Shown here one piece after another: positions 29,511 through 41,165 of a stretch of DNA of 64,000 bases. The translations under genes and the position numbers were made by a program. The number at the start of each line of letters is the position of its first letter. Within the stretch, counting starts at the first letter, position 1. The notes below the pieces were generated by a model. It had not been told where the DNA came from, searched no databases, and saw only the letters and a program-made list of their open reading frames with translations. Source of the DNA: Fidelibacterota bacterium (GTDB lineage Bacteria; Fidelibacterota; UBA8477; JABMPR01); assembly GCA_021734325.1 (NCBI GenBank), contig JAIPJF010000006.1, positions 35,692-99,691 on the forward strand. Direction: 5' to 3'.

Positions 29511-30248
29511 ATGAATTTTTCTCAAATCCTCTTTAAGTCGCCCCTTGATGCCTATAAAACCTGTATTGGGATCATTGGTGGTGGTGGAAAAACCACCCTG
29601 CTTTATAATTTAGGCGATGAACTGGCCGAAACTTATTCTCAAGTCATTTTATCTTCCCTTACCAAATCCGGAATATCCTCCCATCACCCGGCTCACCTTT
29701 ACAAAGAATTTGAGGCTGAAGACAGCAGGGCTGCTTTACTTAAAAACAATCCTGTGTATGTCATGGGGGAATACGAGCACAGTGAAAAATTAATCGGACT
29801 TGAGGAAGCTCAGCTGGAACAGTTATATGAGGCATCTGATCTTACCATTTTTGAATGCGATGGTGCCCGAAAACGTCCAATTAAAGCACATCAACCTTAT
29901 GACCCGGAAATCCCTCATTTTGCTACCCATACCATCGTTGTTGTGGGGGCTGACGCCGTAGGGGCAAAAATAGATGGTAAACTGGTCCACAGACCTGAAT
30001 TATTCCGTGAACTCTGGGATGTAAATGCTAATTTCGTGTTGACACCCCCGTTTATTGCTAAGGTTCTCACCTCTCAATATGGGTATATGAAAAAGGTGCC
30101 ACACAGCTCTAAAATCTCTTATTTCGTGAATAAGGCCGACACCTTTCCTCGAGAGTCCTTTAAATTAGCCCAGGCAATTGCCCGCCATAGCAATGCACCT
30201 GTTTTCTATGGGAGTCTTGAGAAACGTCAATTGGAGAAATTCAGCTGA
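29511..30248 (+). CDS. yqeC: Selenium cofactor biosynthesis protein YqeC
   Basis: IIGGGGKTTL P-loop and ECDGARKRPIKA...PEIP motif. Confidence 0.85.
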   Translation: MNFSQILFKSPLDAYKTCIGIIGGGGKTTLLYNLGDELAETYSQVILSSLTKSGISSHHPAHLYKEFEAEDSRAALLKNNPVYVMGEYEHSEKLIGLEEAQLEQLYEASDLTIFECDGARKRPIKAHQPYDPEIPHFATHTIVVVGADAVGAKIDGKLVHRPELFRELWDVNANFVLTPPFIAKVLTSQYGYMKKVPHSSKISYFVNKADTFPRESFKLAQAIARHSNAPVFYGSLEKRQLEKFS

Positions 30249-30832
30249 TGCTGGAAGTTGCCATAATCATTACTGCTGCTGGTCTGTCAACAAGATTTCC
30301 TCCCAACAAACTTTTGCAGGACGTTTCAGGAAAGACCTGCATAGAGCACACTCTGGACACCTTTGCAGATTTTCATCTTGATACATATGTGGTACTTGGA
30401 CATGAGGGTGATCTGGTCCAAAAAAAGATACTTGAAGGCAATGGACGGGATGTTTCCTTTGTCTATAATTCGGATTACAGATCGGGTCTCTCAAGCTCCG
30501 TTATCGCCGGCATCCGGCAGGCTGGAAATGCATACGACTATTGGTGCTTTTGTCCGGGTGACAAACCATTCATCAAGACTGAAACAGTGTTAAAATTACT
30601 TAACCGACTCGAGAAAAAAACGCCGCTGATCCTGGCACCCTATTACAGCAAGCAGATTGGACACCCCATTTTCTTTTCCAGGGAACTGGGACCGAGTTTC
30701 CTAACCATCAACGGGGATGTCGGCGGAAGACAACTGATTGAGAATTACCAAAACAGAACCATGAAACTGAATGTGTCCGATCATGGAGTGGTCCTGGATA
30801 TGGATCGTTATCTGGATTCGGAACATGTTTGA
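30248..30832 (+). CDS. mocA: Molybdenum cofactor cytidylyltransferase-like nucleotidyltransferase (MocA/YgfJ)
   Basis: ITAAGLSTRF..NKLL, YRSGLSSSVIAG, PGDKP, GHPIFF, GDVGGR, LDMD. Confidence 0.8.
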   Translation: MLEVAIIITAAGLSTRFPPNKLLQDVSGKTCIEHTLDTFADFHLDTYVVLGHEGDLVQKKILEGNGRDVSFVYNSDYRSGLSSSVIAGIRQAGNAYDYWCFCPGDKPFIKTETVLKLLNRLEKKTPLILAPYYSKQIGHPIFFSRELGPSFLTINGDVGGRQLIENYQNRTMKLNVSDHGVVLDMDRYLDSEHV

Positions 30833-31622
30833 GAAGCATCTGATCTGGGTCAGAGGTGCTGGTGAACTGGGTAGTGCCATTGTTCACCTGATCTTCCGGC
30901 TTGGTTTTCGCGTTTTCGTTTCGGAGATCATCCCTCCCCTGGCCATTCGCCGACCAGTCACTTTCAGCGATGCCATTCTACTGGGTTCAACGGATGTTGA
31001 GGGTGTGGTCGGAAAGTATGATACCGAGGTCAAACTTCCGGAAAAATATCCCTGGCCGCATGTCCCCATATTCCAGGATATTCCAACATTGCTAAAGGAA
31101 TTGCGACCATCAATTATAATCGATGCTCGTATGAAAAAAATATACGCGGAAGACTTCCGTCCCTGGGCAGGACTGGTCATTGGTTTGGGTCCTGGATTCC
31201 ATACCGAAAAGAATTGTCACCTGGTCATTGAGACCATGCGCGGGCATGATCTGGCCAGAATTATTTCCCACGGTGGACCGAAGAAGGATACGGGAGTGCC
31301 CGGGAATGTGGGTGGAGAAACGTCGAAACGCATCATCAGAGCTCCCAGGGCCGGTCGAATTAACTGGCGTGTGGATTTTGGTGATCTCGTGACAGCGCAT
31401 GAGATCCTTGGTAATATGGATGATGGTGCACCGCTCTATTCACCTCTTCAGGGCATGGTTCGTGGTTTGATTTCTCCAGAAACCCCTGTGATCAAGAACA
31501 TGAAAATCGGTGATATAGATCCAAGAGGAGCGGAGGTTAAATACCTTCAGATCTCTGACAAGGCAAGGTCCATTGCAGCCGGTGTTCTGGAAGCGATTCT
31601 TTTGCATTCAAAGGATAGATAA
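30825..31622 (+). CDS. yqeB: Selenium-dependent molybdenum hydroxylase system protein YqeB
   Basis: VRGAGELGSAI, PLAIRRPVTF, IIDARMKK, IGLGPGF, IETMRGHDL, TGVPG..GG, IGDIDPR, SDKARSIAAGVLEAI. Confidence 0.92.
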   Translation: MFEKHLIWVRGAGELGSAIVHLIFRLGFRVFVSEIIPPLAIRRPVTFSDAILLGSTDVEGVVGKYDTEVKLPEKYPWPHVPIFQDIPTLLKELRPSIIIDARMKKIYAEDFRPWAGLVIGLGPGFHTEKNCHLVIETMRGHDLARIISHGGPKKDTGVPGNVGGETSKRIIRAPRAGRINWRVDFGDLVTAHEILGNMDDGAPLYSPLQGMVRGLISPETPVIKNMKIGDIDPRGAEVKYLQISDKARSIAAGVLEAILLHSKDR

Positions 31623-31623
31623 C

Positions 31624-32646
31624 ATGCTCAGCGTCCTGTTGAAACAATGGTCTGAGGTACGCGAAAAACCGGGGGCTGTACTGTGCTCCATCGTAGCGTG
31701 GAAAGGCTCGGTCCCCCGCAAGGATTATCCCCTGATGCTCGTTCTCGAGGATGGAAACATACTGGGGACCATCGGCGGAGGATCCATGGAACTCAAAGTG
31801 ATCCATGCTGCCAGAGAGATGATTGGAACAAGCGCGTCACGCTTGCTGGATTTTGACATGACCGGAGATGATATCGCTGGCGACCTCGGTCTTTGCGGGG
31901 GCACATTGAAGGTCCTGATAGAACCTTTTACCTTATACATTGAAAATTTTATGACTCATTTGGCCAGTCAGAAGTCATCAAACAAGAAGCTCATGGTCAA
32001 ATTATCCATCTTTCAGTATCCGGAGATTAAAGTTGAGCGACAGCTAATCAGTTCGAGAAAGATGATCGGCGATCCTGATCCGGAGCTCGATCAGCGAATC
32101 AAGACCATTTTTGAAAACCAGCAAACAAAATCATTTGAATACAAGGGCGTCCACTATTTGATATGGCAGCCCTTCAGCCTCCCCACCCTCCATATTTTTG
32201 GTGCCGGTCATGTGGGTCAGGCAGTCGCCAAACTGGCCCATTTCAATGAACTTGAGGTGAAGGTCTATGATGACCGGGATGCGCTCCTCACACCTGAGCG
32301 ATTCCCTTATGCCCAAAGAATATCTATTCACTTCCCAATATTATGGGAAGACATCCCGACATTGAATAATGCCGATTTTGTCCTGATCGCCAGCCGGGAG
32401 CACAAACATGATCATGAACTTTTACTGGGTCTCCTGGACTCTGATCCAGGATACATCGGTCTGGTCAGCAGTGCCCGAAAATGGGAACTCCTTTCGAAGA
32501 GCCTTCTGTCAAATGGTGTAAATCCAGATGCCGTTTCAAAAGTCCATGCTCCGGTAGGGTTGGATATTGAAGCCCAAACCGTTCCTGAGATCGCCATCAG
32601 TATCCTTTCCGAGATCATTTCAGATTATCGCCGGGAGGATCATTGA
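31624..32646 (+). CDS. xdhC: XdhC family molybdoenzyme maturation chaperone
   Basis: GSVPR, GTIGGGSME, CGG, IFGAGHVG, DDR, YIGLVSSARKW, HAPVGLDIEAQTVPEIAISI. Confidence 0.9.
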   Translation: MLSVLLKQWSEVREKPGAVLCSIVAWKGSVPRKDYPLMLVLEDGNILGTIGGGSMELKVIHAAREMIGTSASRLLDFDMTGDDIAGDLGLCGGTLKVLIEPFTLYIENFMTHLASQKSSNKKLMVKLSIFQYPEIKVERQLISSRKMIGDPDPELDQRIKTIFENQQTKSFEYKGVHYLIWQPFSLPTLHIFGAGHVGQAVAKLAHFNELEVKVYDDRDALLTPERFPYAQRISIHFPILWEDIPTLNNADFVLIASREHKHDHELLLGLLDSDPGYIGLVSSARKWELLSKSLLSNGVNPDAVSKVHAPVGLDIEAQTVPEIAISILSEIISDYRREDH

Positions 32647-33998
32647 ATTCTGTGCTCATAAAGAACGGGACTATCATTCATGCAGATTCGCAATCAATAG
32701 CCGATATTCTCATTCAAGGTGAAACAATCACCAGCATTGGTGAAAACCTTGTACTTCCCTCGTCGACAAGGATCATAGATGCAACTGGAAAATTAATTTT
32801 CCCAGGTATCATCGATCCTCATACACATATGGGAATACCCATCAAATCCGGTTTCTCCGCTGATAATTTTGCCAGCGGAAGCCGATCGGCGCTCCATGGT
32901 GGGGTCACGACGATTTTGGACTTTACAGTCCTTGAGCGGGATCAAACCCTGATGGAAAGTCTGGAGCTGCGGAAAAACCTGGCGCGTGAATCAGTATGCG
33001 ATGTTGGCCTGCATATCAATATCACCCGGTTTGATCCTGATATTCTTAAGGAGATACCTGTCCTTATCAAGGCAGGGTTTTCCAGTTTCAAGGTCTTTAC
33101 GACCTATAAAGAATCCCACATGATGCTCGATTATGAACAGATTGAAGTCATCGCCAGGATTATCGCCGCCCACAACGGTGTTCTCATGGTGCATGCTGAA
33201 GATGATGGCGTCATTTCAGCAGCAATGTCGCCCTATTTAGAAGAACTGGAAACTGCGCCGCGTTTTCACCCGCTTGGCCGTCCTGCAGAAGCAGAAGTAG
33301 TTGCAGTGAGGAGATTGGGTGGCATCTCTGCCAGGAGTGGTTGCACTATGTACATTGTCCACTTGAATACGGCTGCAGGGTTGAAGATTGCCACCCTGTA
33401 CCCAAACCTGAAGCTTGAGACCTGTCCCCACTATCTGCTCCTCAACGATGGGGTCTATGATCAAGAAGATGGTCACATGTATGTAGCCAGTCCACCGCTG
33501 CGGAAAAAAGCAGATCAGGAGGCATTGTGGCAGGGTCTTATTGATGGACATATCGACACCATTGGTTCAGATCATTGCCCCTTTTGCCTTGAGGACAAGG
33601 CGAGGAACATCCCATTCCAGGAAATTCCCAATGGCATGGGCGGAGTAGAAACGCTTTTTCCTGTATTACTCGCAAAATTTCTGGATCAAGGATTAGATCT
33701 TTGCCTTTTAACTCGCCTGACCAGCAAGCAACCCGCTGAAATCTTTGGAATCTCATCTCGCAAGGGCTCAATCAATCCCCAGATGGATGCTGACCTCCTC
33801 ATCGTTGATCCCCATAATGTAAAAACCGATTGGGAGGGGACTCTGCACACCCATCTGGATTGGAATGCCTATTCGGGACTGCCTGCCATTTTCCCTGAAA
33901 TGGTATTTCGTCGAGGCGAGATCGTCGCGTTGCAAGACAAGGGTCTACGTCCTACCTCAGGGGTGATCTTGGGGTCGAGATCAAGAAATCAAGAATAA
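32643..33998 (+). CDS. hydA: Dihydropyrimidinase/hydantoinase family cyclic amidohydrolase
   Basis: IKNGTI, PGIIDPHTH, GGVTTILDF, FKVF, VHAE, IVHL, ETCPHYL, SPPLR, SDHCP, PNG.GGVE; TTG start overlaps the xdhC stop. Confidence 0.85.
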   Translation: MNSVLIKNGTIIHADSQSIADILIQGETITSIGENLVLPSSTRIIDATGKLIFPGIIDPHTHMGIPIKSGFSADNFASGSRSALHGGVTTILDFTVLERDQTLMESLELRKNLARESVCDVGLHINITRFDPDILKEIPVLIKAGFSSFKVFTTYKESHMMLDYEQIEVIARIIAAHNGVLMVHAEDDGVISAAMSPYLEELETAPRFHPLGRPAEAEVVAVRRLGGISARSGCTMYIVHLNTAAGLKIATLYPNLKLETCPHYLLLNDGVYDQEDGHMYVASPPLRKKADQEALWQGLIDGHIDTIGSDHCPFCLEDKARNIPFQEIPNGMGGVETLFPVLLAKFLDQGLDLCLLTRLTSKQPAEIFGISSRKGSINPQMDADLLIVDPHNVKTDWEGTLHTHLDWNAYSGLPAIFPEMVFRRGEIVALQDKGLRPTSGVILGSRSRNQE

Positions 33999-34685: not shown

Positions 34686-35855
34686 ATGGAACATATTAAA
34701 AAAGATCGAATGTTTATCTTTCTGGCCGTCATGTCCATTGTCAGCACAATGGGTTTCCAGGTATGGCGCACCCTCTTCAATAATTTTGCTGTGGAAGTGG
34801 TTGGTCTTGGCGGAAATCATATTGGGGTCATTCAGTCTGTGAGGGAAATCCCTGGTTTTCTGGCATTGCTGGTGGTCTATGTCATCCTATTTATGAAAGA
34901 ACATCGCCTGTCGGCCTTGTCCATAGTCATTTTGGGGCTGGGAATAAGTCTGACGGGTGTATTCCCTTCATTTACAGGCCTGATATTTACAACCCTCTTG
35001 ATGAGTTTTGGTTTTCACTATTTTGAAACAACCAACCAATCATTGACGCTTCAATATTTTAAAAAAACAACATCACCCTGGGTAATGGGGAAATTGAGAT
35101 CCTATTCATCAGCCTCTGCCATTGTCATTGGTTTTGTGCTGCTGGGGGCCAGCTCAGTACTTAGTTATGAATTGATGTTTGGCATTCTTGGTGGTTTGAT
35201 CATCGCTGCCGGTATCTGGGGCATGCTCCAGAATCCAACACGCCAGGATCTGGTGCCTCAGCAGAAAAAAATGATCTTCAAAAAACGCTACGGACTGTAC
35301 TATTTCCTTACCTTTATGGCTGGTGCTCGTCGACAGGTCTTCGTTGCCTTTGCAGTGTTTCTCCTGGTTGAAAAATTTCATTTCAGCGTCAAAGAGATCA
35401 CCCTGCTATTCATGTTGAATAATGCCGTGAATTATTTTCTTAGCCCCCTTATCGGAAAGGCGATCATTCGCTTTGGAGAACAAAAAGTCCTCTCCCTGGA
35501 ATATTTCAGTCTGATATTCATATTCCTGGCCTATGCTTCTGTCGAATCCAAGGCATTGATGGCTGCACTGTATATCTTCGATCATATTTTCTTTAATTTT
35601 TCAATTGGAATACGTACCTTTTTCCAAAAGGTCGGTGACGCTGACCACATGGCACCGACCATGGCCATGGGGTTTACCATAAATCACATAGCCGCAGTGG
35701 TCATTCCCGTTCTCGGTGGTTTGGCCTGGGTCGTGGATTATCGGATTCCCTTTTTCGCTGGTGCTTTCATGAGTGTTATTTCATTGATTGCCGTCCAATT
35801 CATAAACACCAGCATCCGCAAGGCAGACATACGACATCAGACGGCAAACCCTTAG
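34686..35855 (+). CDS. MFS transporter
   Basis: About 12 hydrophobic segments; QSVREIPGFL, FHYFET, GARRQVF motifs. Confidence 0.85.
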   Translation: MEHIKKDRMFIFLAVMSIVSTMGFQVWRTLFNNFAVEVVGLGGNHIGVIQSVREIPGFLALLVVYVILFMKEHRLSALSIVILGLGISLTGVFPSFTGLIFTTLLMSFGFHYFETTNQSLTLQYFKKTTSPWVMGKLRSYSSASAIVIGFVLLGASSVLSYELMFGILGGLIIAAGIWGMLQNPTRQDLVPQQKKMIFKKRYGLYYFLTFMAGARRQVFVAFAVFLLVEKFHFSVKEITLLFMLNNAVNYFLSPLIGKAIIRFGEQKVLSLEYFSLIFIFLAYASVESKALMAALYIFDHIFFNFSIGIRTFFQKVGDADHMAPTMAMGFTINHIAAVVIPVLGGLAWVVDYRIPFFAGAFMSVISLIAVQFINTSIRKADIRHQTANP

Positions 35856-36271
35856 CTTAAGAACCGATCCTCTAGTTCTTGAGTGGGGATCATGCATTTT
35901 TCTCTGCTTCCAAACCAATGATATCGGTTTCTTGCGATCCAGTCATACAGCCAATCGCGAAGCGATTTCGGTAAAACCCGAAACACATATAGATAGCGAA
36001 TAAATCCGCTGAGGGACCTGCAGATCTGCAGAACCGCATCACTTTTTGTCAGTATCTGTGACCCAGTGACCAGGACAATCGAATCAAGCCCTGAAACATC
36101 TGACGGGAACTGGCTAAGTATAGCTTGCGCTGCAGGTGACTGGAAATTGGCAAACTGGTAAATAGAGGACGGATCTCTCTTGATAATGGTCTGGACACTG
36201 GCAGTGCACAGATTGCAGATCCCATCAAAGATGATAAGGGGATGTTTTTCGATAGTGTTAAGATTAGACAT
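35852..36271 (-). CDS. DCC1-like thiol-disulfide oxidoreductase (DUF393/YuxK)
   Basis: IFDGICNLC (DxxCxxC), F...QS, KSDAVL, RDW.YDWIARNRY.WFG..E.C; start could be 36271 or 36301. Confidence 0.9.
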   Translation of the reverse strand: MSNLNTIEKHPLIIFDGICNLCTASVQTIIKRDPSSIYQFANFQSPAAQAILSQFPSDVSGLDSIVLVTGSQILTKSDAVLQICRSLSGFIRYLYVFRVLPKSLRDWLYDWIARNRYHWFGSREKCMIPTQELEDRFLS

Positions 36272-36349
36272 CCGTTCATTGTAATTCAAATTTTCAATCA
36301 TTGTCAATAGCAGTTTCTGTTTTAGCTTACTCAAAAGAAGGAGAATCCA

Positions 36350-36574
36350 ATGCATATAAAAATTGAATACTGTGTATCCTGAAACTATCTACCAAGAGCA
36401 ACCAGTTTGGTTGCAGATATTCTTGAGAGATTTGGGAATGACGTTGAATCTCTCACCATCCTGCCTTCAGGTGGTGGTGTATATGAGATATGGCGAGATG
36501 ATGAACTGATCTTTTCCAAAAAACAACTCTCGCGCTTCCCCCATTCAAGTGATGAGGTCATGAACCTCTTTTAG
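36350..36574 (+). CDS. SelT/SelW/SelH (Rdx) family selenoprotein, UGA = Sec at 36380
   Basis: AAGGAG RBS; MHIKIEYCVS-U-NYLPRATSLVADIL...SGGGVYEIWRDDELIFSKKQLSRFPHSSDEVMNLF; CxxU motif and family C-terminal motif read through the in-frame TGA. Confidence 0.92.
36386..36419 (+). promoter_or_regulatory. Bacterial SECIS-like hairpin
   Basis: Lower stem TATCT/AGATA, upper stem GCAACCA/TGGTTGC, G-containing apical loop about 22 nt after the UGA. Confidence 0.75.
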
Positions 36575-36818
36575 TTGAGCGATATTCCACAAGGAGGAAT
36601 TGTACACGTGCAGATGGGCAGTATTCTTCTTACTCGCTGGTAGGCGCGTTCTCTGCTGGTATTTCCGGTGCTCATTCATACCATATTTATCCTGGATCAC
36701 AGTAAATTTTATGGTCGGCAATTAGCTTTATGCTGTATAGCTTGGTGGCTGGGTTTGGAAATAATATTAACAAACTATAAAACAACCGGTAAACGGTTTA
36801 TGAGTTTTGGAGATTAAC

Positions 36819-37757
36819 ATGTTTCGATACGCGGGAAAATTCGCACTTTCACTATTCATCCTTACAGGATTTGTCTGGGCAGAGCAAATTGTCACAACTG
36901 GTGAGCCCATGCCACTGACCAACGCAGGTGATATCTATCTGGCACCAAAATGGTCACCTGATGGTTCGCAACTTGCCGTGAGTGGAAGTAAGTATACAGG
37001 GATTTATCTGATCAATATTCCCGGTGGAGAGATGAAAATGCTGACTGATCATGATGGCGCTGGATACGGCCTTTCCTGGTCCCCGAAAGGTGATGCCATT
37101 GCAGCCCAGATTTCCAATTATGTCAACTACAGCAGGCAAACTCAACTGATGCTTTTTAAGTTAGATGGATCCGAAAAGGCCTTGTCAGAGAAAAAACATT
37201 CCATCGCGGGAATTCCAAGCTGGTCCAAAACCGGAGAACATGTCTACTTAAAGTCTGGGACCAAGTTTCAAGCTTTTGCAACCGATGTTGAGAAGGCCGA
37301 TCCAATGACAGGCTCCATTGTTTATCTTAATAACCTTGGCGTATATAAAAGAGAGCTGGAAAGCGAAACTGAGATATTGATCTCTGATCCTCAGCAGAGA
37401 GTCCTACACCTGGCAATCTCACCCTCTGGTGATCAATTTGTGTATTCAACTGTCGGGGAAATGTTATGGCTTGCAAATATTGATGGGTCCCAACGGAAAA
37501 AACTTGGTCGCGGAACAGCCCCAGACTGGTCTCCCGATGGCAGGTGGATCGTCTCCATGATAACCAGCGATGATGGTCATGTGTTTACCAGTGCTGACTT
37601 GATCATTTATAATGCCACAAGTGGTGTCGCCACCAGACTCACCCAGACTCCGGAGATACACGAAATGCATCCAGCATGGTCTCCAGATGGGAAATGGATC
37701 GCATATGAAAATGAACATGACGGTCGTATCTGGCTTGTTGAAGTGGAGGAGAATTAG
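36819..37757 (+). CDS. TolB-like beta-propeller protein (PD40 repeats), secreted
   Basis: Signal peptide; repeated P.WSPDG motifs (PKWSPDGS, LSWSPKG, PDWSPDGR, PAWSPDGK). Confidence 0.85.
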   Translation: MFRYAGKFALSLFILTGFVWAEQIVTTGEPMPLTNAGDIYLAPKWSPDGSQLAVSGSKYTGIYLINIPGGEMKMLTDHDGAGYGLSWSPKGDAIAAQISNYVNYSRQTQLMLFKLDGSEKALSEKKHSIAGIPSWSKTGEHVYLKSGTKFQAFATDVEKADPMTGSIVYLNNLGVYKRELESETEILISDPQQRVLHLAISPSGDQFVYSTVGEMLWLANIDGSQRKKLGRGTAPDWSPDGRWIVSMITSDDGHVFTSADLIIYNATSGVATRLTQTPEIHEMHPAWSPDGKWIAYENEHDGRIWLVEVEEN

Positions 37758-37760
37758 ATC

Positions 37761-40250
37761 ATGAAGCATCTCATCTCATCTCTTTTCATACTTGCCTTAA
37801 GCCTCAATGCCCAGGTCACCGGTCTTTCCGACTGGAGTCTGTTTATCGATCCCGGTCACAGCCAGCACGAGAACATGGGGGTTAATGGGTATTCAGAAGC
37901 TGAGTCAAATCTTAAAGAAGCCCTCCATCTCAAGGATCTGCTGACGACCAAAACGGATATTGGCATTGTGTGGACTTCCAGGACAAACGACACCGAATTA
38001 GTCGGTCTCTATGACCGATCCGTTATGGCGAATAATCTTCATGCAGACTGGTTCCACTCAATACATAGCAATGCCCCCTCATCAACAAATTCGACGGTGC
38101 TCCTGCTTTACGGTGAGAAAAGTCCCGGTGTTGAAAAGACCCCCAATGGTGGCAAGGCCATGAGCCATATCATGGATGATATAATGGCCAACGCCATGCG
38201 GATTCCAAAGGCAGGTGGTCAGGGTACATACGGTGATTGTGTATTCTATGGCGTCTCATCTGGACCGTATCTCTCAGTCAACCGAAATACACTCATGGCA
38301 AGTGAGCTTAGTGAATCGGGACACCATACCGTTCCCTGGCAGAACAACCGACAAATGAACAATGAACACGCACGCCTGGTCGCTTACAGCATTTTCTGGT
38401 CAGTGCTTGATCTCAAAGGGATCACCAGACCCTATCCTGGAATTCTGACCGGCATTGTAAGTGATATTGAATCAAAGGTTCCTGTCAATGGCGCAACCAT
38501 AGAGGTAAACGGTGAATCCTACACGACGGATACTTATGAATCACTGTTTTACAAGTATACCACTAATCCTGACAAACTGCATAACGGGTTCTATTATTTT
38601 GAAGACCTTCCCGATCAGGCTATGGAGGTCATCGTTTCTGCCCCGGGGTATTATCCAGACACATTACAAATAACAGATATGGTAAATAATTTTGCCACTT
38701 TTCTGGATGTTTCTCTCATCCCCAATACTCCACCAATTGTTCTGGAGTCACATCCGGCACAGGGAGATACAAGTTATCCAGCCTGGCAGATTCCCAATTT
38801 CAGTTTTTCCCGAGCCATGAATGATACATCACTTGAATCTGCATTTTCGGTAGATCCCTTTTTTGATGGTACCTTCTATTTCTCTTCAGATCACAAGCTC
38901 ATGGCGTATGTACCAACAGATACGCTCGAATTTCTTATGGACTATACAATAACGATCAAAGGAACAGCCACAGACATCTATGACCACCCCCTGGATGGCA
39001 ATCAGGATGGTGTTGGAGGAGATGATTGGGTAATCAGCTTTAGAACTGGACCACCGGATCTCACGGCACCGGAAATCACTAACATCTACCCTGCATCTGG
39101 CAACGACATGATCGACCTACACCCTGTGTTCAATATTGTCTGGGATGAAGAACTTGATCCAGAAAGTATCTCAAACGATCTGATCAAGCTGGAGCATCTC
39201 AATGACCTGCAGCTACAGGAAACCTATTTAGAGCATCATGTCATTAATAACCGCAGCGTTCTTGTACTCTACACCACACAGGTTTTGAGCTATGCTCAGT
39301 CCTATCAGCTACGCGTTTTGTCTGGTTTCACAGATCTGTTTGGAAATGTGCAAAGCAGCACCAGGACCATTATCTTTACAACACCAAATTATGGGTATGA
39401 AGTCACAAGCATAGATAATTTTGACAGTGGGATTTCTGCCAATTGGTGGACACCAACGACAAGCGGGAGTACAGAAGGCGTCATTGGTCCAGAAACATCT
39501 GTTGTAGCAAGTACGGCTGTCAGGGCCTTGAACCTGCAGAGCACGACTTCCATGCGTTTGAATTACAGTTGGGATGCAGAAGCTGGAACCTGGTTGATCA
39601 GGGAATATTTATCAGCTGGCACCCCGCGTAGTGTTACCTTTAACAGCTCAAAAATGCTTCAAGCGTATGTGTTCGGTGATGGAAGTGGAAACTTGTTCCG
39701 CTTTGCTTTGGATGATCGCTATCCAACATCTGCCGCTGAAAATCATGAGGTAAGCCCCTGGTTTGTAGTCGACTGGTACGGCTGGCGACTGGTCAGTTGG
39801 GATATGACCCATGATGGCACCGGAACCTGGTTGGGTGATGGTAATCTTGATGGTACCCTTCGTTTTGATAGTATCCAGCTTGGTCACACAGCGGGCAAAT
39901 CCACTACTGGTACTTTTTATATTGATGATCTGCGTGTGACGACACGCAATTATCTCGCTCTCGATGGCAACACTGGGATTCTACCCATGGAGTTCGCCCT
40001 GTTGCCCAATTATCCCAACCCCTTTAATCCCTGGACGACCATTCCCTTCACCCTTCCTGAAGCTTCTGATGTCAGCGTGGACATCTATAATCTGAAGGGT
40101 GAACTGATTGAGCAGGTCCTCGGAGGTTCCTTAGAGGCCGGTCAGCATGTGACACGCTGGAACGCTTCCCATGTTGCTTCAGGCATTTATCTGGTCAGGC
40201 TGTCTGCTCCAGGTGCCTCCGTCTCGCGGAAAATAACGGTTCTTAAATAG
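37761..40250 (+). CDS. N-acetylmuramoyl-L-alanine amidase (Amidase_3) with Ig-like domains and C-terminal T9SS/FlgD-like domain
   Basis: FIDPGHSQ...SEAESN, SRT, HSIHSNA, ELSESG zinc-ligand pattern; two Big_5-like repeats (FSRAMN, WDEELD); NYPNPFNP...SGIYLV tail. Confidence 0.85.
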   Translation: MKHLISSLFILALSLNAQVTGLSDWSLFIDPGHSQHENMGVNGYSEAESNLKEALHLKDLLTTKTDIGIVWTSRTNDTELVGLYDRSVMANNLHADWFHSIHSNAPSSTNSTVLLLYGEKSPGVEKTPNGGKAMSHIMDDIMANAMRIPKAGGQGTYGDCVFYGVSSGPYLSVNRNTLMASELSESGHHTVPWQNNRQMNNEHARLVAYSIFWSVLDLKGITRPYPGILTGIVSDIESKVPVNGATIEVNGESYTTDTYESLFYKYTTNPDKLHNGFYYFEDLPDQAMEVIVSAPGYYPDTLQITDMVNNFATFLDVSLIPNTPPIVLESHPAQGDTSYPAWQIPNFSFSRAMNDTSLESAFSVDPFFDGTFYFSSDHKLMAYVPTDTLEFLMDYTITIKGTATDIYDHPLDGNQDGVGGDDWVISFRTGPPDLTAPEITNIYPASGNDMIDLHPVFNIVWDEELDPESISNDLIKLEHLNDLQLQETYLEHHVINNRSVLVLYTTQVLSYAQSYQLRVLSGFTDLFGNVQSSTRTIIFTTPNYGYEVTSIDNFDSGISANWWTPTTSGSTEGVIGPETSVVASTAVRALNLQSTTSMRLNYSWDAEAGTWLIREYLSAGTPRSVTFNSSKMLQAYVFGDGSGNLFRFALDDRYPTSAAENHEVSPWFVVDWYGWRLVSWDMTHDGTGTWLGDGNLDGTLRFDSIQLGHTAGKSTTGTFYIDDLRVTTRNYLALDGNTGILPMEFALLPNYPNPFNPWTTIPFTLPEASDVSVDIYNLKGELIEQVLGGSLEAGQHVTRWNASHVASGIYLVRLSAPGASVSRKITVLK

Positions 40251-40280: not shown

Positions 40281-41165
40281 ATGATAAGTAGACTTGTTAT
40301 CCTGCTTTTTTTGAGCTGTTCATTCTTGATGGCAGATTTGGATATTAAACAAGCATCTGCACCATCCAGTTGGTCGGACAAGGCAGAAGAGGACCTGATC
40401 TCCCTGATCGCCAAGAACGATAACGGCCGGAAGGTCTACTCGCGTGTTATTAAACGATTACGTCGCAGCGGCGTACCGCTTACCTATGCCTGGCAAGTGT
40501 TTTCCGACCCTGGTATTACGATAGACGAAAGTATCTCAGAACGCTTTTCCAGACCAGCGGAAAAAATGGAATACTCGGATTATCGCCGAATCTTTGTGAA
40601 TAATCAAAGAATTGACGGCGGTGTGAAATTTTATGCTGAGCATAAGGATCTTTTAAATCTGGTATCGGATAAATATGGCGTTGATCCCTATCTCATTCTG
40701 AGTTTTGTCGGTGTGGAGACTCAATATGGATTGTATACCTCAACTTATTCCGTCTTTAACTCCCTCCACACCATTATCCACACCATGCCTCGTCGGGACA
40801 AGTGGGCAGAAGATGAAATGGTGGCCTGGTTCATGATCTGCCGACTTGATGGTCTGGGTCCCCATGATGTCAAGGGTTCCTATGCCGGCGCTTTCGGATA
40901 TGGTCAATTCATGCCCACCAGCTTCAAGCAATATGCCGTTGATATGGATGGGGACGGATCTCGAGAGCCCTATGAATGGGCCGACGTCTTCGGAAGCATT
41001 GCCAATTATTTATTAAAACGCGGCAATTATCAGACTGATAGTCTGGATTTTTCAGAAGACTCTGCCAACTGGCGGGCTGTCTACAAATACAACCCATCGA
41101 AAAATTATGTGAAGGCTGTTCTAGAATTGCGGGCCGAATTGCAAACGGCCATCAATAAGTCTTAA
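40281..41165 (+). CDS. mltB: Lytic murein transglycosylase B family
   Basis: KYGVDP...GVETQYG, GSYAGAFGYGQFMPTSF, AVDMDGDG, SIANYL, YNPS..YV.AV. Confidence 0.9.
   Translation: MISRLVILLFLSCSFLMADLDIKQASAPSSWSDKAEEDLISLIAKNDNGRKVYSRVIKRLRRSGVPLTYAWQVFSDPGITIDESISERFSRPAEKMEYSDYRRIFVNNQRIDGGVKFYAEHKDLLNLVSDKYGVDPYLILSFVGVETQYGLYTSTYSVFNSLHTIIHTMPRRDKWAEDEMVAWFMICRLDGLGPHDVKGSYAGAFGYGQFMPTSFKQYAVDMDGDGSREPYEWADVFGSIANYLLKRGNYQTDSLDFSEDSANWRAVYKYNPSKNYVKAVLELRAELQTAINKS

Follow-up and report, generated by a model that had tools for sequence, protein, structure and literature searches.

We have found that positions 36350 to 36574 of the window (the whole stretch of 64,000 nucleotides analyzed here, from a Fidelibacterota bacterium) most probably hold a functional gene coding for a SelW-like selenoprotein of 74 residues (Rdx family, CXXU_selWTH). 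From the sequence data we give this reading, in which selenium would be inserted at an in-frame UGA, a probability of about 0.93. Four independent lines indicate that the UGA is decoded: the conservation of the stop codon at homologous loci, the coding character of the codons located upstream of it, the presence of the selenocysteine (Sec) machinery and the finding that TGA is not reassigned in this genome. The initial annotation had already proposed an Rdx-family selenoprotein at this place, and the family match, the stop conservation, the machinery and the covariation of a hairpin located after the UGA all support that proposal. Every defining feature that can be examined by sequence was found in the gene, and the family is already well described, i.e., from the point of view of the biology the case adds little beyond the known SelW-like selenoproteins. 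As a case of annotation, a selenoprotein truncated to 55 amino acids by standard gene calling, it is clean and fully supported.

The features of the locus and of its surroundings are collected in Table 1. The AAGGAG ribosome-binding site and the ATG that had been claimed for the gene are both present (start codon at 36350–36352), and the series CVS-TGA that gives the CxxU motif was read as described, with the Cys8 codon TGT at 36371–36373 followed by GTA, TCC and the TGA. After the UGA the frame is uninterrupted up to the TAG at 36572–36574, as had also been stated for the SelW-like remainder. When TGA is translated as U the product is MHIKIEYCVSUNYLPRATSLVADILERFGNDVESLTILPSGGGVYEIWRDDELIFSKKQLSRFPHSSDEVMNLF (74 residues). 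A Shine-Dalgarno sequence of the (A)AGGAG type was found with the same spacing in seven of the nine relatives of the same genus that were compared, and in degraded versions in the other two. Over the 40 bases located 5' of the ATG the ten genus-level sequences are variable at nearly all positions, with the exception of this AGGAG-type element, kept by most of them.

Table 1. Features of the selenoprotein locus and its neighborhood, in positions of the window.
Feature	Position	Strand	Basis
Shine-Dalgarno AAGGAG	36338..36343	+	Read directly; six bases, then start codon
Complete CDS of the predicted 74-aa SelW-like/Rdx selenoprotein, stop included	36350..36574	+	Translation with TGA=U
CxxU redox motif TGT GTA TCC TGA = Cys8-Val-Ser-Sec11 (Sec predicted)	36371..36382	+	Sequence reading and translation
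In-frame UGA, codon 11, probably read as selenocysteine	36380..36382	+	Conservation at homologous loci
bSECIS-type hairpin, 7-bp stem GCAACCA/UGGUUGC, loop GUU	36398..36414	+	Fold and covariation
55-aa fragment, TTG start, table-11 call	36407..36574	+	ORF listing
DCC1-like thiol-disulfide oxidoreductase, CNLC motif	35852..36271	-	Pfam PF04134, E 3.6e-29
Cluster of yqeC, mocA-like cytidylyltransferase, yqeB, XdhC-family maturation factor and hydantoinase-like amidohydrolase	29511–33998	+	
829-aa protein, N-acetylmuramoyl-L-alanine amidase + Big_5 + C-terminal Por_Secre_tail (type IX secretion sorting)	37761–40250	+	
SLT_2 lytic transglycosylase, after the 829-aa protein	40281–41165		

With translation table 11 only the 55-residue ORF is listed at the locus. 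Exactly this fragment, from the contig of the window, is entry P0002 of the public protein collection, where fragments are likewise recorded for two relatives (P0002–P0004). The contig of P0002 has 145,897 bases, as many as contig C8 of the genome. The statement that the gene was missed by the ORF track holds for the full CDS, which is not listed, but not for its C-terminal part, which is. Since the fragment appears in the calls, the selenoprotein gene was truncated by the callers rather than entirely missed. The same calls are what speaks for taking the UGA as a true stop, with the ORF that starts at the TTG (or nothing at all) as the real gene and the stretch from ATG to UGA as a mini-ORF of 10 codons, a reading that we consider highly improbable. 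In the 55-residue fragment, strand 1 of the Rdx fold and the complete CxxU motif are missing, and the Shine-Dalgarno sequence and the ATG are conserved before codon 1 but not before the TTG. Besides, in the ten genus-level sequences the variable columns of codons 2–10 were 3, 0 and 9 at codon positions 1, 2 and 3 respectively, which reads as a coding pattern upstream of the UGA and is hard to reconcile with a mini-ORF. A true stop would also have to account for the conservation across phyla of the in-frame stop together with the flanking motif YC..U.Y.

We have examined this conservation by scanning relatives, one genome per species. The scan returned 151 relatives, and 80 loci were kept that span Chloroflexota, Bacillota, Planctomycetota, Actinomycetota, Gemmatimonadota, Fibrobacterota and others; the closest named genome among the relatives was a Candidatus Neomarinimicrobiota MAG (73% identity), from which the genome of the window probably belongs to Marinisomatota (SAR406). 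A stop codon was located at the Sec position, within an otherwise conserved frame, in all 80 loci. The codon was read as TGA in 68 loci, and for the remaining 12 tblastn showed a stop at this position. Within its own phylum the gene was detected in 33 of 41 genomes, and the 35 matches all contained exactly one in-frame TGA. Within its own genus it was present in 21 of 22 genomes, the exception being only 63% complete.

These numbers bear directly on the idea of a pseudogene, i.e., of a CxxC Rdx gene whose Cys codon (TGY) was turned into TGA by mutation along this lineage. The change from TGT or TGC to TGA involves a single base and Cys forms of the family do exist, but the same in-frame TGA occurs in 21 of the 22 genus genomes and in distant phyla, so that this reading is effectively refuted by conservation and we give it a negligible probability. 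The frame downstream of the TGA is intact and conserved at the protein level, with 28, 17 and 48 variable columns at codon positions 1, 2 and 3. The maintenance of a co-varying hairpin and the presence of the Sec machinery (see below) also argue against a decayed gene.

The 74-residue product belongs to the Rdx family, with a match to Pfam PF10262 (E 4.5e-19, 68.9 bits over a cut-off of 22.6) that covers profile positions 1–66 of 74, and to NCBIfam TIGR02174, CXXU_selWTH (57.3 bits over a cut-off of 34.2). The equivalog NF041051 (SelTWH_Campy) scored 81.4 bits, below its cut-off of 88, and the sequence can be placed in a subfamily that is related to this equivalog without being part of it. When sequences of the PDB were searched, six solved bacterial proteins related to SelW were matched, with 2fa8 at E 4e-11. 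The expectation that Cys-containing homologs would carry Cys opposite the UGA was borne out in the printed alignments, where the second Cys of 2fa8 (YCTQCNW) and of 3dex (YCTQCRW) is found exactly opposite the UGA (YCVSUNY). In an alignment of 40 sequences Cys8 and position 11 are invariant, and a profile built from these 40 homologs reaches mouse selenoprotein W (2npb) at E 5e-7.

Structure prediction points in the same direction. AF2 gave a poor model from the single sequence (pLDDT 56), and when the alignment of 40 sequences was provided the pLDDT was 97.3. In this model a strand (residues 2–8) is followed by a helix (14–31) and by strands at 34–40, 45–49 and 52–56, and the CxxU motif is located between the first strand and the helix. 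The product is predicted to be a minimal thioredoxin-like domain of the beta-alpha-beta-beta-beta-alpha type. Foldseek superposed the model on 2fa8 with a TM of 0.92 and an rmsd of 0.9 A, and over the whole set of 2fa8, 2obk, 3dex, 2oka, 2ojl and 2p0g the TM values were 0.89–0.92 with an rmsd of about 1 A; thioredoxins appeared as distant matches. The superposition, together with these distant matches, places the CxxU of the model at the site of the redox motif in proteins with a thioredoxin fold.

The genome from which the window comes is a MAG of 2.93 Mb in 37 contigs (45% GC, 84% complete, contamination 0.1%). A search for selA, selB, selC and selD had been proposed as a check of the gene, and all of them were found. 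SelA (516 bits), SelB (324 bits) and SelD (383 bits) exceeded the curated cut-offs, and a tRNA-Sec with anticodon UCA was detected by both ARAGORN and Rfam (RF01852, 72.7 bits over a cut-off of 47). The selD gene (C24:43738–44658; L009 1219–2529) contains an in-frame TGA that would give ...KAAGUAGKIGPGDL..., with U in the GUAGK motif, i.e., SelD is itself a predicted selenoprotein. These genes are located on contigs C4, C12 and C24, separate from the contig of the selenoprotein gene, and since the genome is a MAG their co-residence with it rests on binning.

TGA had been described as an ordinary stop elsewhere in this DNA, and of the 1354 frames in the genome that extend from stop to stop over 300 codons or more it closes 413. 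With about 30% of the long ORFs ending in this way, the recoding at codon 11 would be specific of the site, as the initial annotation had argued. A genome-wide reassignment of TGA, such as the Trp and Gly readings of codes 4 and 25, would make the residue something other than selenocysteine, and nine ENA homologs of 80 residues do show W at the position. We have checked two of these calls, located on contigs of 515–720 bp (L012 282–524 and L013 83–325), and they match the record only if TGA is translated as W; the protein collection shows CSSW where the gene encodes CSSU. The Trp at the Sec position is thus best read as an artefact of the callers, a systematic mistranslation of Sec. In addition, the only tRNA reported with a UCA anticodon is the tRNA-Sec, and the residue aligned in the Cys forms is the catalytic Cys. 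Together with the frequent use of TGA as a stop, this leaves reassignment with next to no likelihood. All three alternatives (reassignment, a pseudogene and a truncated ORF standing alone) were weighed and rejected. Correcting the truncated and Trp-containing calls would bear on how much selenium use is estimated for SAR406/Marinisomatota, a lineage that is abundant in the ocean.

A hairpin with a 7-bp stem and a G in its loop had been reported about 22 nt after the UGA. We recovered it as GCAACCA-GUU-UGGUUGC; 15 nt separate the UGA from the stem, and 22 nt separate it from the loop G at 36405. The local fold has -19.9 kcal/mol (z = -2.4), and 4 of 200 shuffles fold as well, so the fold of the single sequence is unremarkable when taken alone. 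It is the covariation across homologs, rather than this fold, that sets the hairpin beyond chance. In 35 distinct homologous sequences, aligned free of gaps from the UGA, the seven stem pairs form in 91.4% of the cells, and a shift of the 3' partners by 1–3 columns lowers the value to 16–51%. Changes on both sides were found in four of the seven pairs (28 cells), and none of 500 shuffles reached the observed pairing or covariation score. In the apical loop the G is invariant and the U that follows it is nearly so.

The stem is located wholly inside conserved codons and L20 is nearly invariant, so that part of the conservation belongs to the protein level. From here it could be argued that the hairpin simply results from conservation of the peptide A-T/V-S-L-V/A-A, and that Sec is inserted by means of another element. 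We regard this as very unlikely. The paired columns change together through amino acid replacements, beyond synonymous changes, with ACC/GUU (Thr/Val) becoming GUC/GCG (Val/Ala), GUC/ACA (Val/Thr) or UCC/GAG (Ser/Glu), and compensations of this kind indicate that the RNA structure constrains the protein sequence and not the reverse. The loss of pairing when the partner columns are slid argues in the same sense. Furthermore, in a subgroup of Bacillota (Tissierellia/Clostridia) with the context UGAGG..., the peptide is a different one (AVAL), yet a hairpin (type AGAGC-AGUU-GCUCU) is formed whose loop again contains GU. Compared with the 7-bp stem found in the UGAAAY subgroup, its stem is shorter (5–6 bp) and lies about 4 nt nearer to the UGA. 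These shorter hairpins were found 15–30 nt after the TGA (L030, L037, L044, L047, L053, L061 and others), and the family therefore contains two registers of the SECIS. A scan of positions 36000–37000 against Rfam at E<=10 gave no SECIS family, only a chance match to caiA; as bacterial SECIS elements are short and specific of each gene, the missing match is weak evidence.

On the reading of a decoded UGA, translation would start at the ATG behind the AAGGAG element, and codon 11 would be read as selenocysteine. Following the established bacterial pathway, SelD would make selenophosphate and SelA would turn Ser-tRNA(Sec) into Sec-tRNA(Sec). The hairpin inside the coding sequence, with G and U in its apical loop, would recruit SelB-GTP with Sec-tRNA(Sec), and SelB would deliver the latter to the UGA with the ribosome located some 15–20 nt upstream of the stem, the complex outcompeting release factor 2 at this codon. 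To judge from the family, the product would most likely be an oxidoreductase dependent on thiols, and it would alternate between the selenol/thiol form and a Cys8-Sec11 selenenylsulfide formed within the molecule.

SelW-like proteins are the commonest marine selenoproteins. Bacterial representatives with CxxU were described about two decades ago, among them those of the marine metagenomes studied by Zhang and Gladyshev (PMC1088965, PMC2398784, PMC1794560). The gene described here belongs to the same family, then Pfam05169 and now within Rdx and TIGR02174. Like the metagenomic ones it has a CxxU and, just after the UGA, a SECIS-like hairpin with a G in the apical loop. A marine origin would also match, provided that Ca. 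Neomarinimicrobiota is the correct assignment. Few Cys homologs of SelW-like selenoproteins are known in organisms that use Sec (PMC1794560), and the same scarcity of Cys forms is seen among the close relatives here. Nothing essential differs from those proteins; in the present case the gene is found in a MAG of the Marinisomatota/SAR406 type and has a divergent DCC1-like neighbor that is specific of the genus. As to activity, the literature quoted in PMC1088965 reports for SelW a thiol-dependent redox activity or an interaction with glutathione.

The proteins of known structure, i.e., Atu0228 (2fa8), 3dex, 2obk, 2oka, 2ojl and 2p0g, have the same fold at 26–35% identity, and their redox motif occupies the corresponding position, but they carry CxxC and have about 100 residues with extra termini, whereas the protein of the window carries CxxU in 74 residues. 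Mouse SelW (2npb) and MIEN1 (2ljk) belong to the same Rdx superfamily, SelW with a CxxU too, and superpose with a TM of about 0.71, although the sequence identity is only about 20%. In eukaryotes the SECIS of SelW is located in the 3' UTR; in contrast to the mammalian gene, the element found here is inside the ORF, beside the UGA. In this it resembles the SECIS of the E. coli fdhF type, a hairpin located immediately 3' of the UGA in the coding region, whose apical loop with G and U is bound by SelB. The stem inside the CDS that begins 15 nt after the UGA and the GUU loop with its invariant G are reminiscent of that element. However, the conserved stem, of 7 bp, is shorter here and shows no evident bulged U; binding of SelB is predicted.

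The new lead at this locus, a minor one, comes from a DCC1-like (DUF393) gene that is paired with the selenoprotein gene in divergent orientation, an arrangement conserved within the genus. The longest ORF of this neighbor, on the minus strand, reaches 36355, and its PF04134 domain begins at residue 41; the start is probably the ATG at 36271. A sigma-70-like element, TTGACA-18-TACAAT, at 36307..36278 (-), ends 7 nt before this ATG, so the DCC1-like mRNA could be leaderless. An adjacent divergent ortholog was found in 16 of the 21 relatives of the same genus that carry the Rdx gene, and within the genus every DCC1-like ortholog with at least 43% identity adjoins the Rdx gene. The neighbor was absent from 79 other genome loci and from two short ENA contigs, the only locus with it being L014, from the closest relative, and the linkage was not seen in other families or phyla. 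Being confined to the genus, the pairing could be inherited synteny, and any functional link rests on shallow synteny. A literature search for DUF393 together with selenoproteins found no papers. That the SelW-like and the DCC1-like (DUF393, CxxC) proteins form a co-regulated redox relay of two proteins, sharing an intergenic control region of about 80–100 nt, is a proposal we consider doubtful; if true, it would give the bacterial SelW-like proteins a first candidate partner.

The locus may also be part of a small neighborhood of selenium use. The tight cluster that contains yqeB and yqeC is located 2.3 kb upstream of the selenoprotein gene, and both are named selenium cofactor biosynthesis proteins by NCBIfam (yqeC, TIGR03172, 149 bits against 73; yqeB, TIGR03309, 247 bits against 220).

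Some minor observations concern the regions that flank the gene. A search on the + strand for a sigma-70-like promoter found none. About 20–30 nt 5' of the ATG, the motif TTTAGCTTA / TTTAGTTTG / TTTACTTTA is conserved in the window (at about 36320–36330) and in loci L095–L102, within a leader that is otherwise variable in the relatives of the genus, and we take it to resemble the -7 promoter element TAnnTTTG of Bacteroidota type. At the other end, the final codons of the selenoprotein gene and its stop are overlapped by a weak hairpin that resembles a terminator (GAGGTCATGAACCTC, then TTTTAG, 36554–36568, +). Further downstream, the domains of the 829-residue protein, with the lytic transglycosylase that follows it, fit an FCB-group organism.
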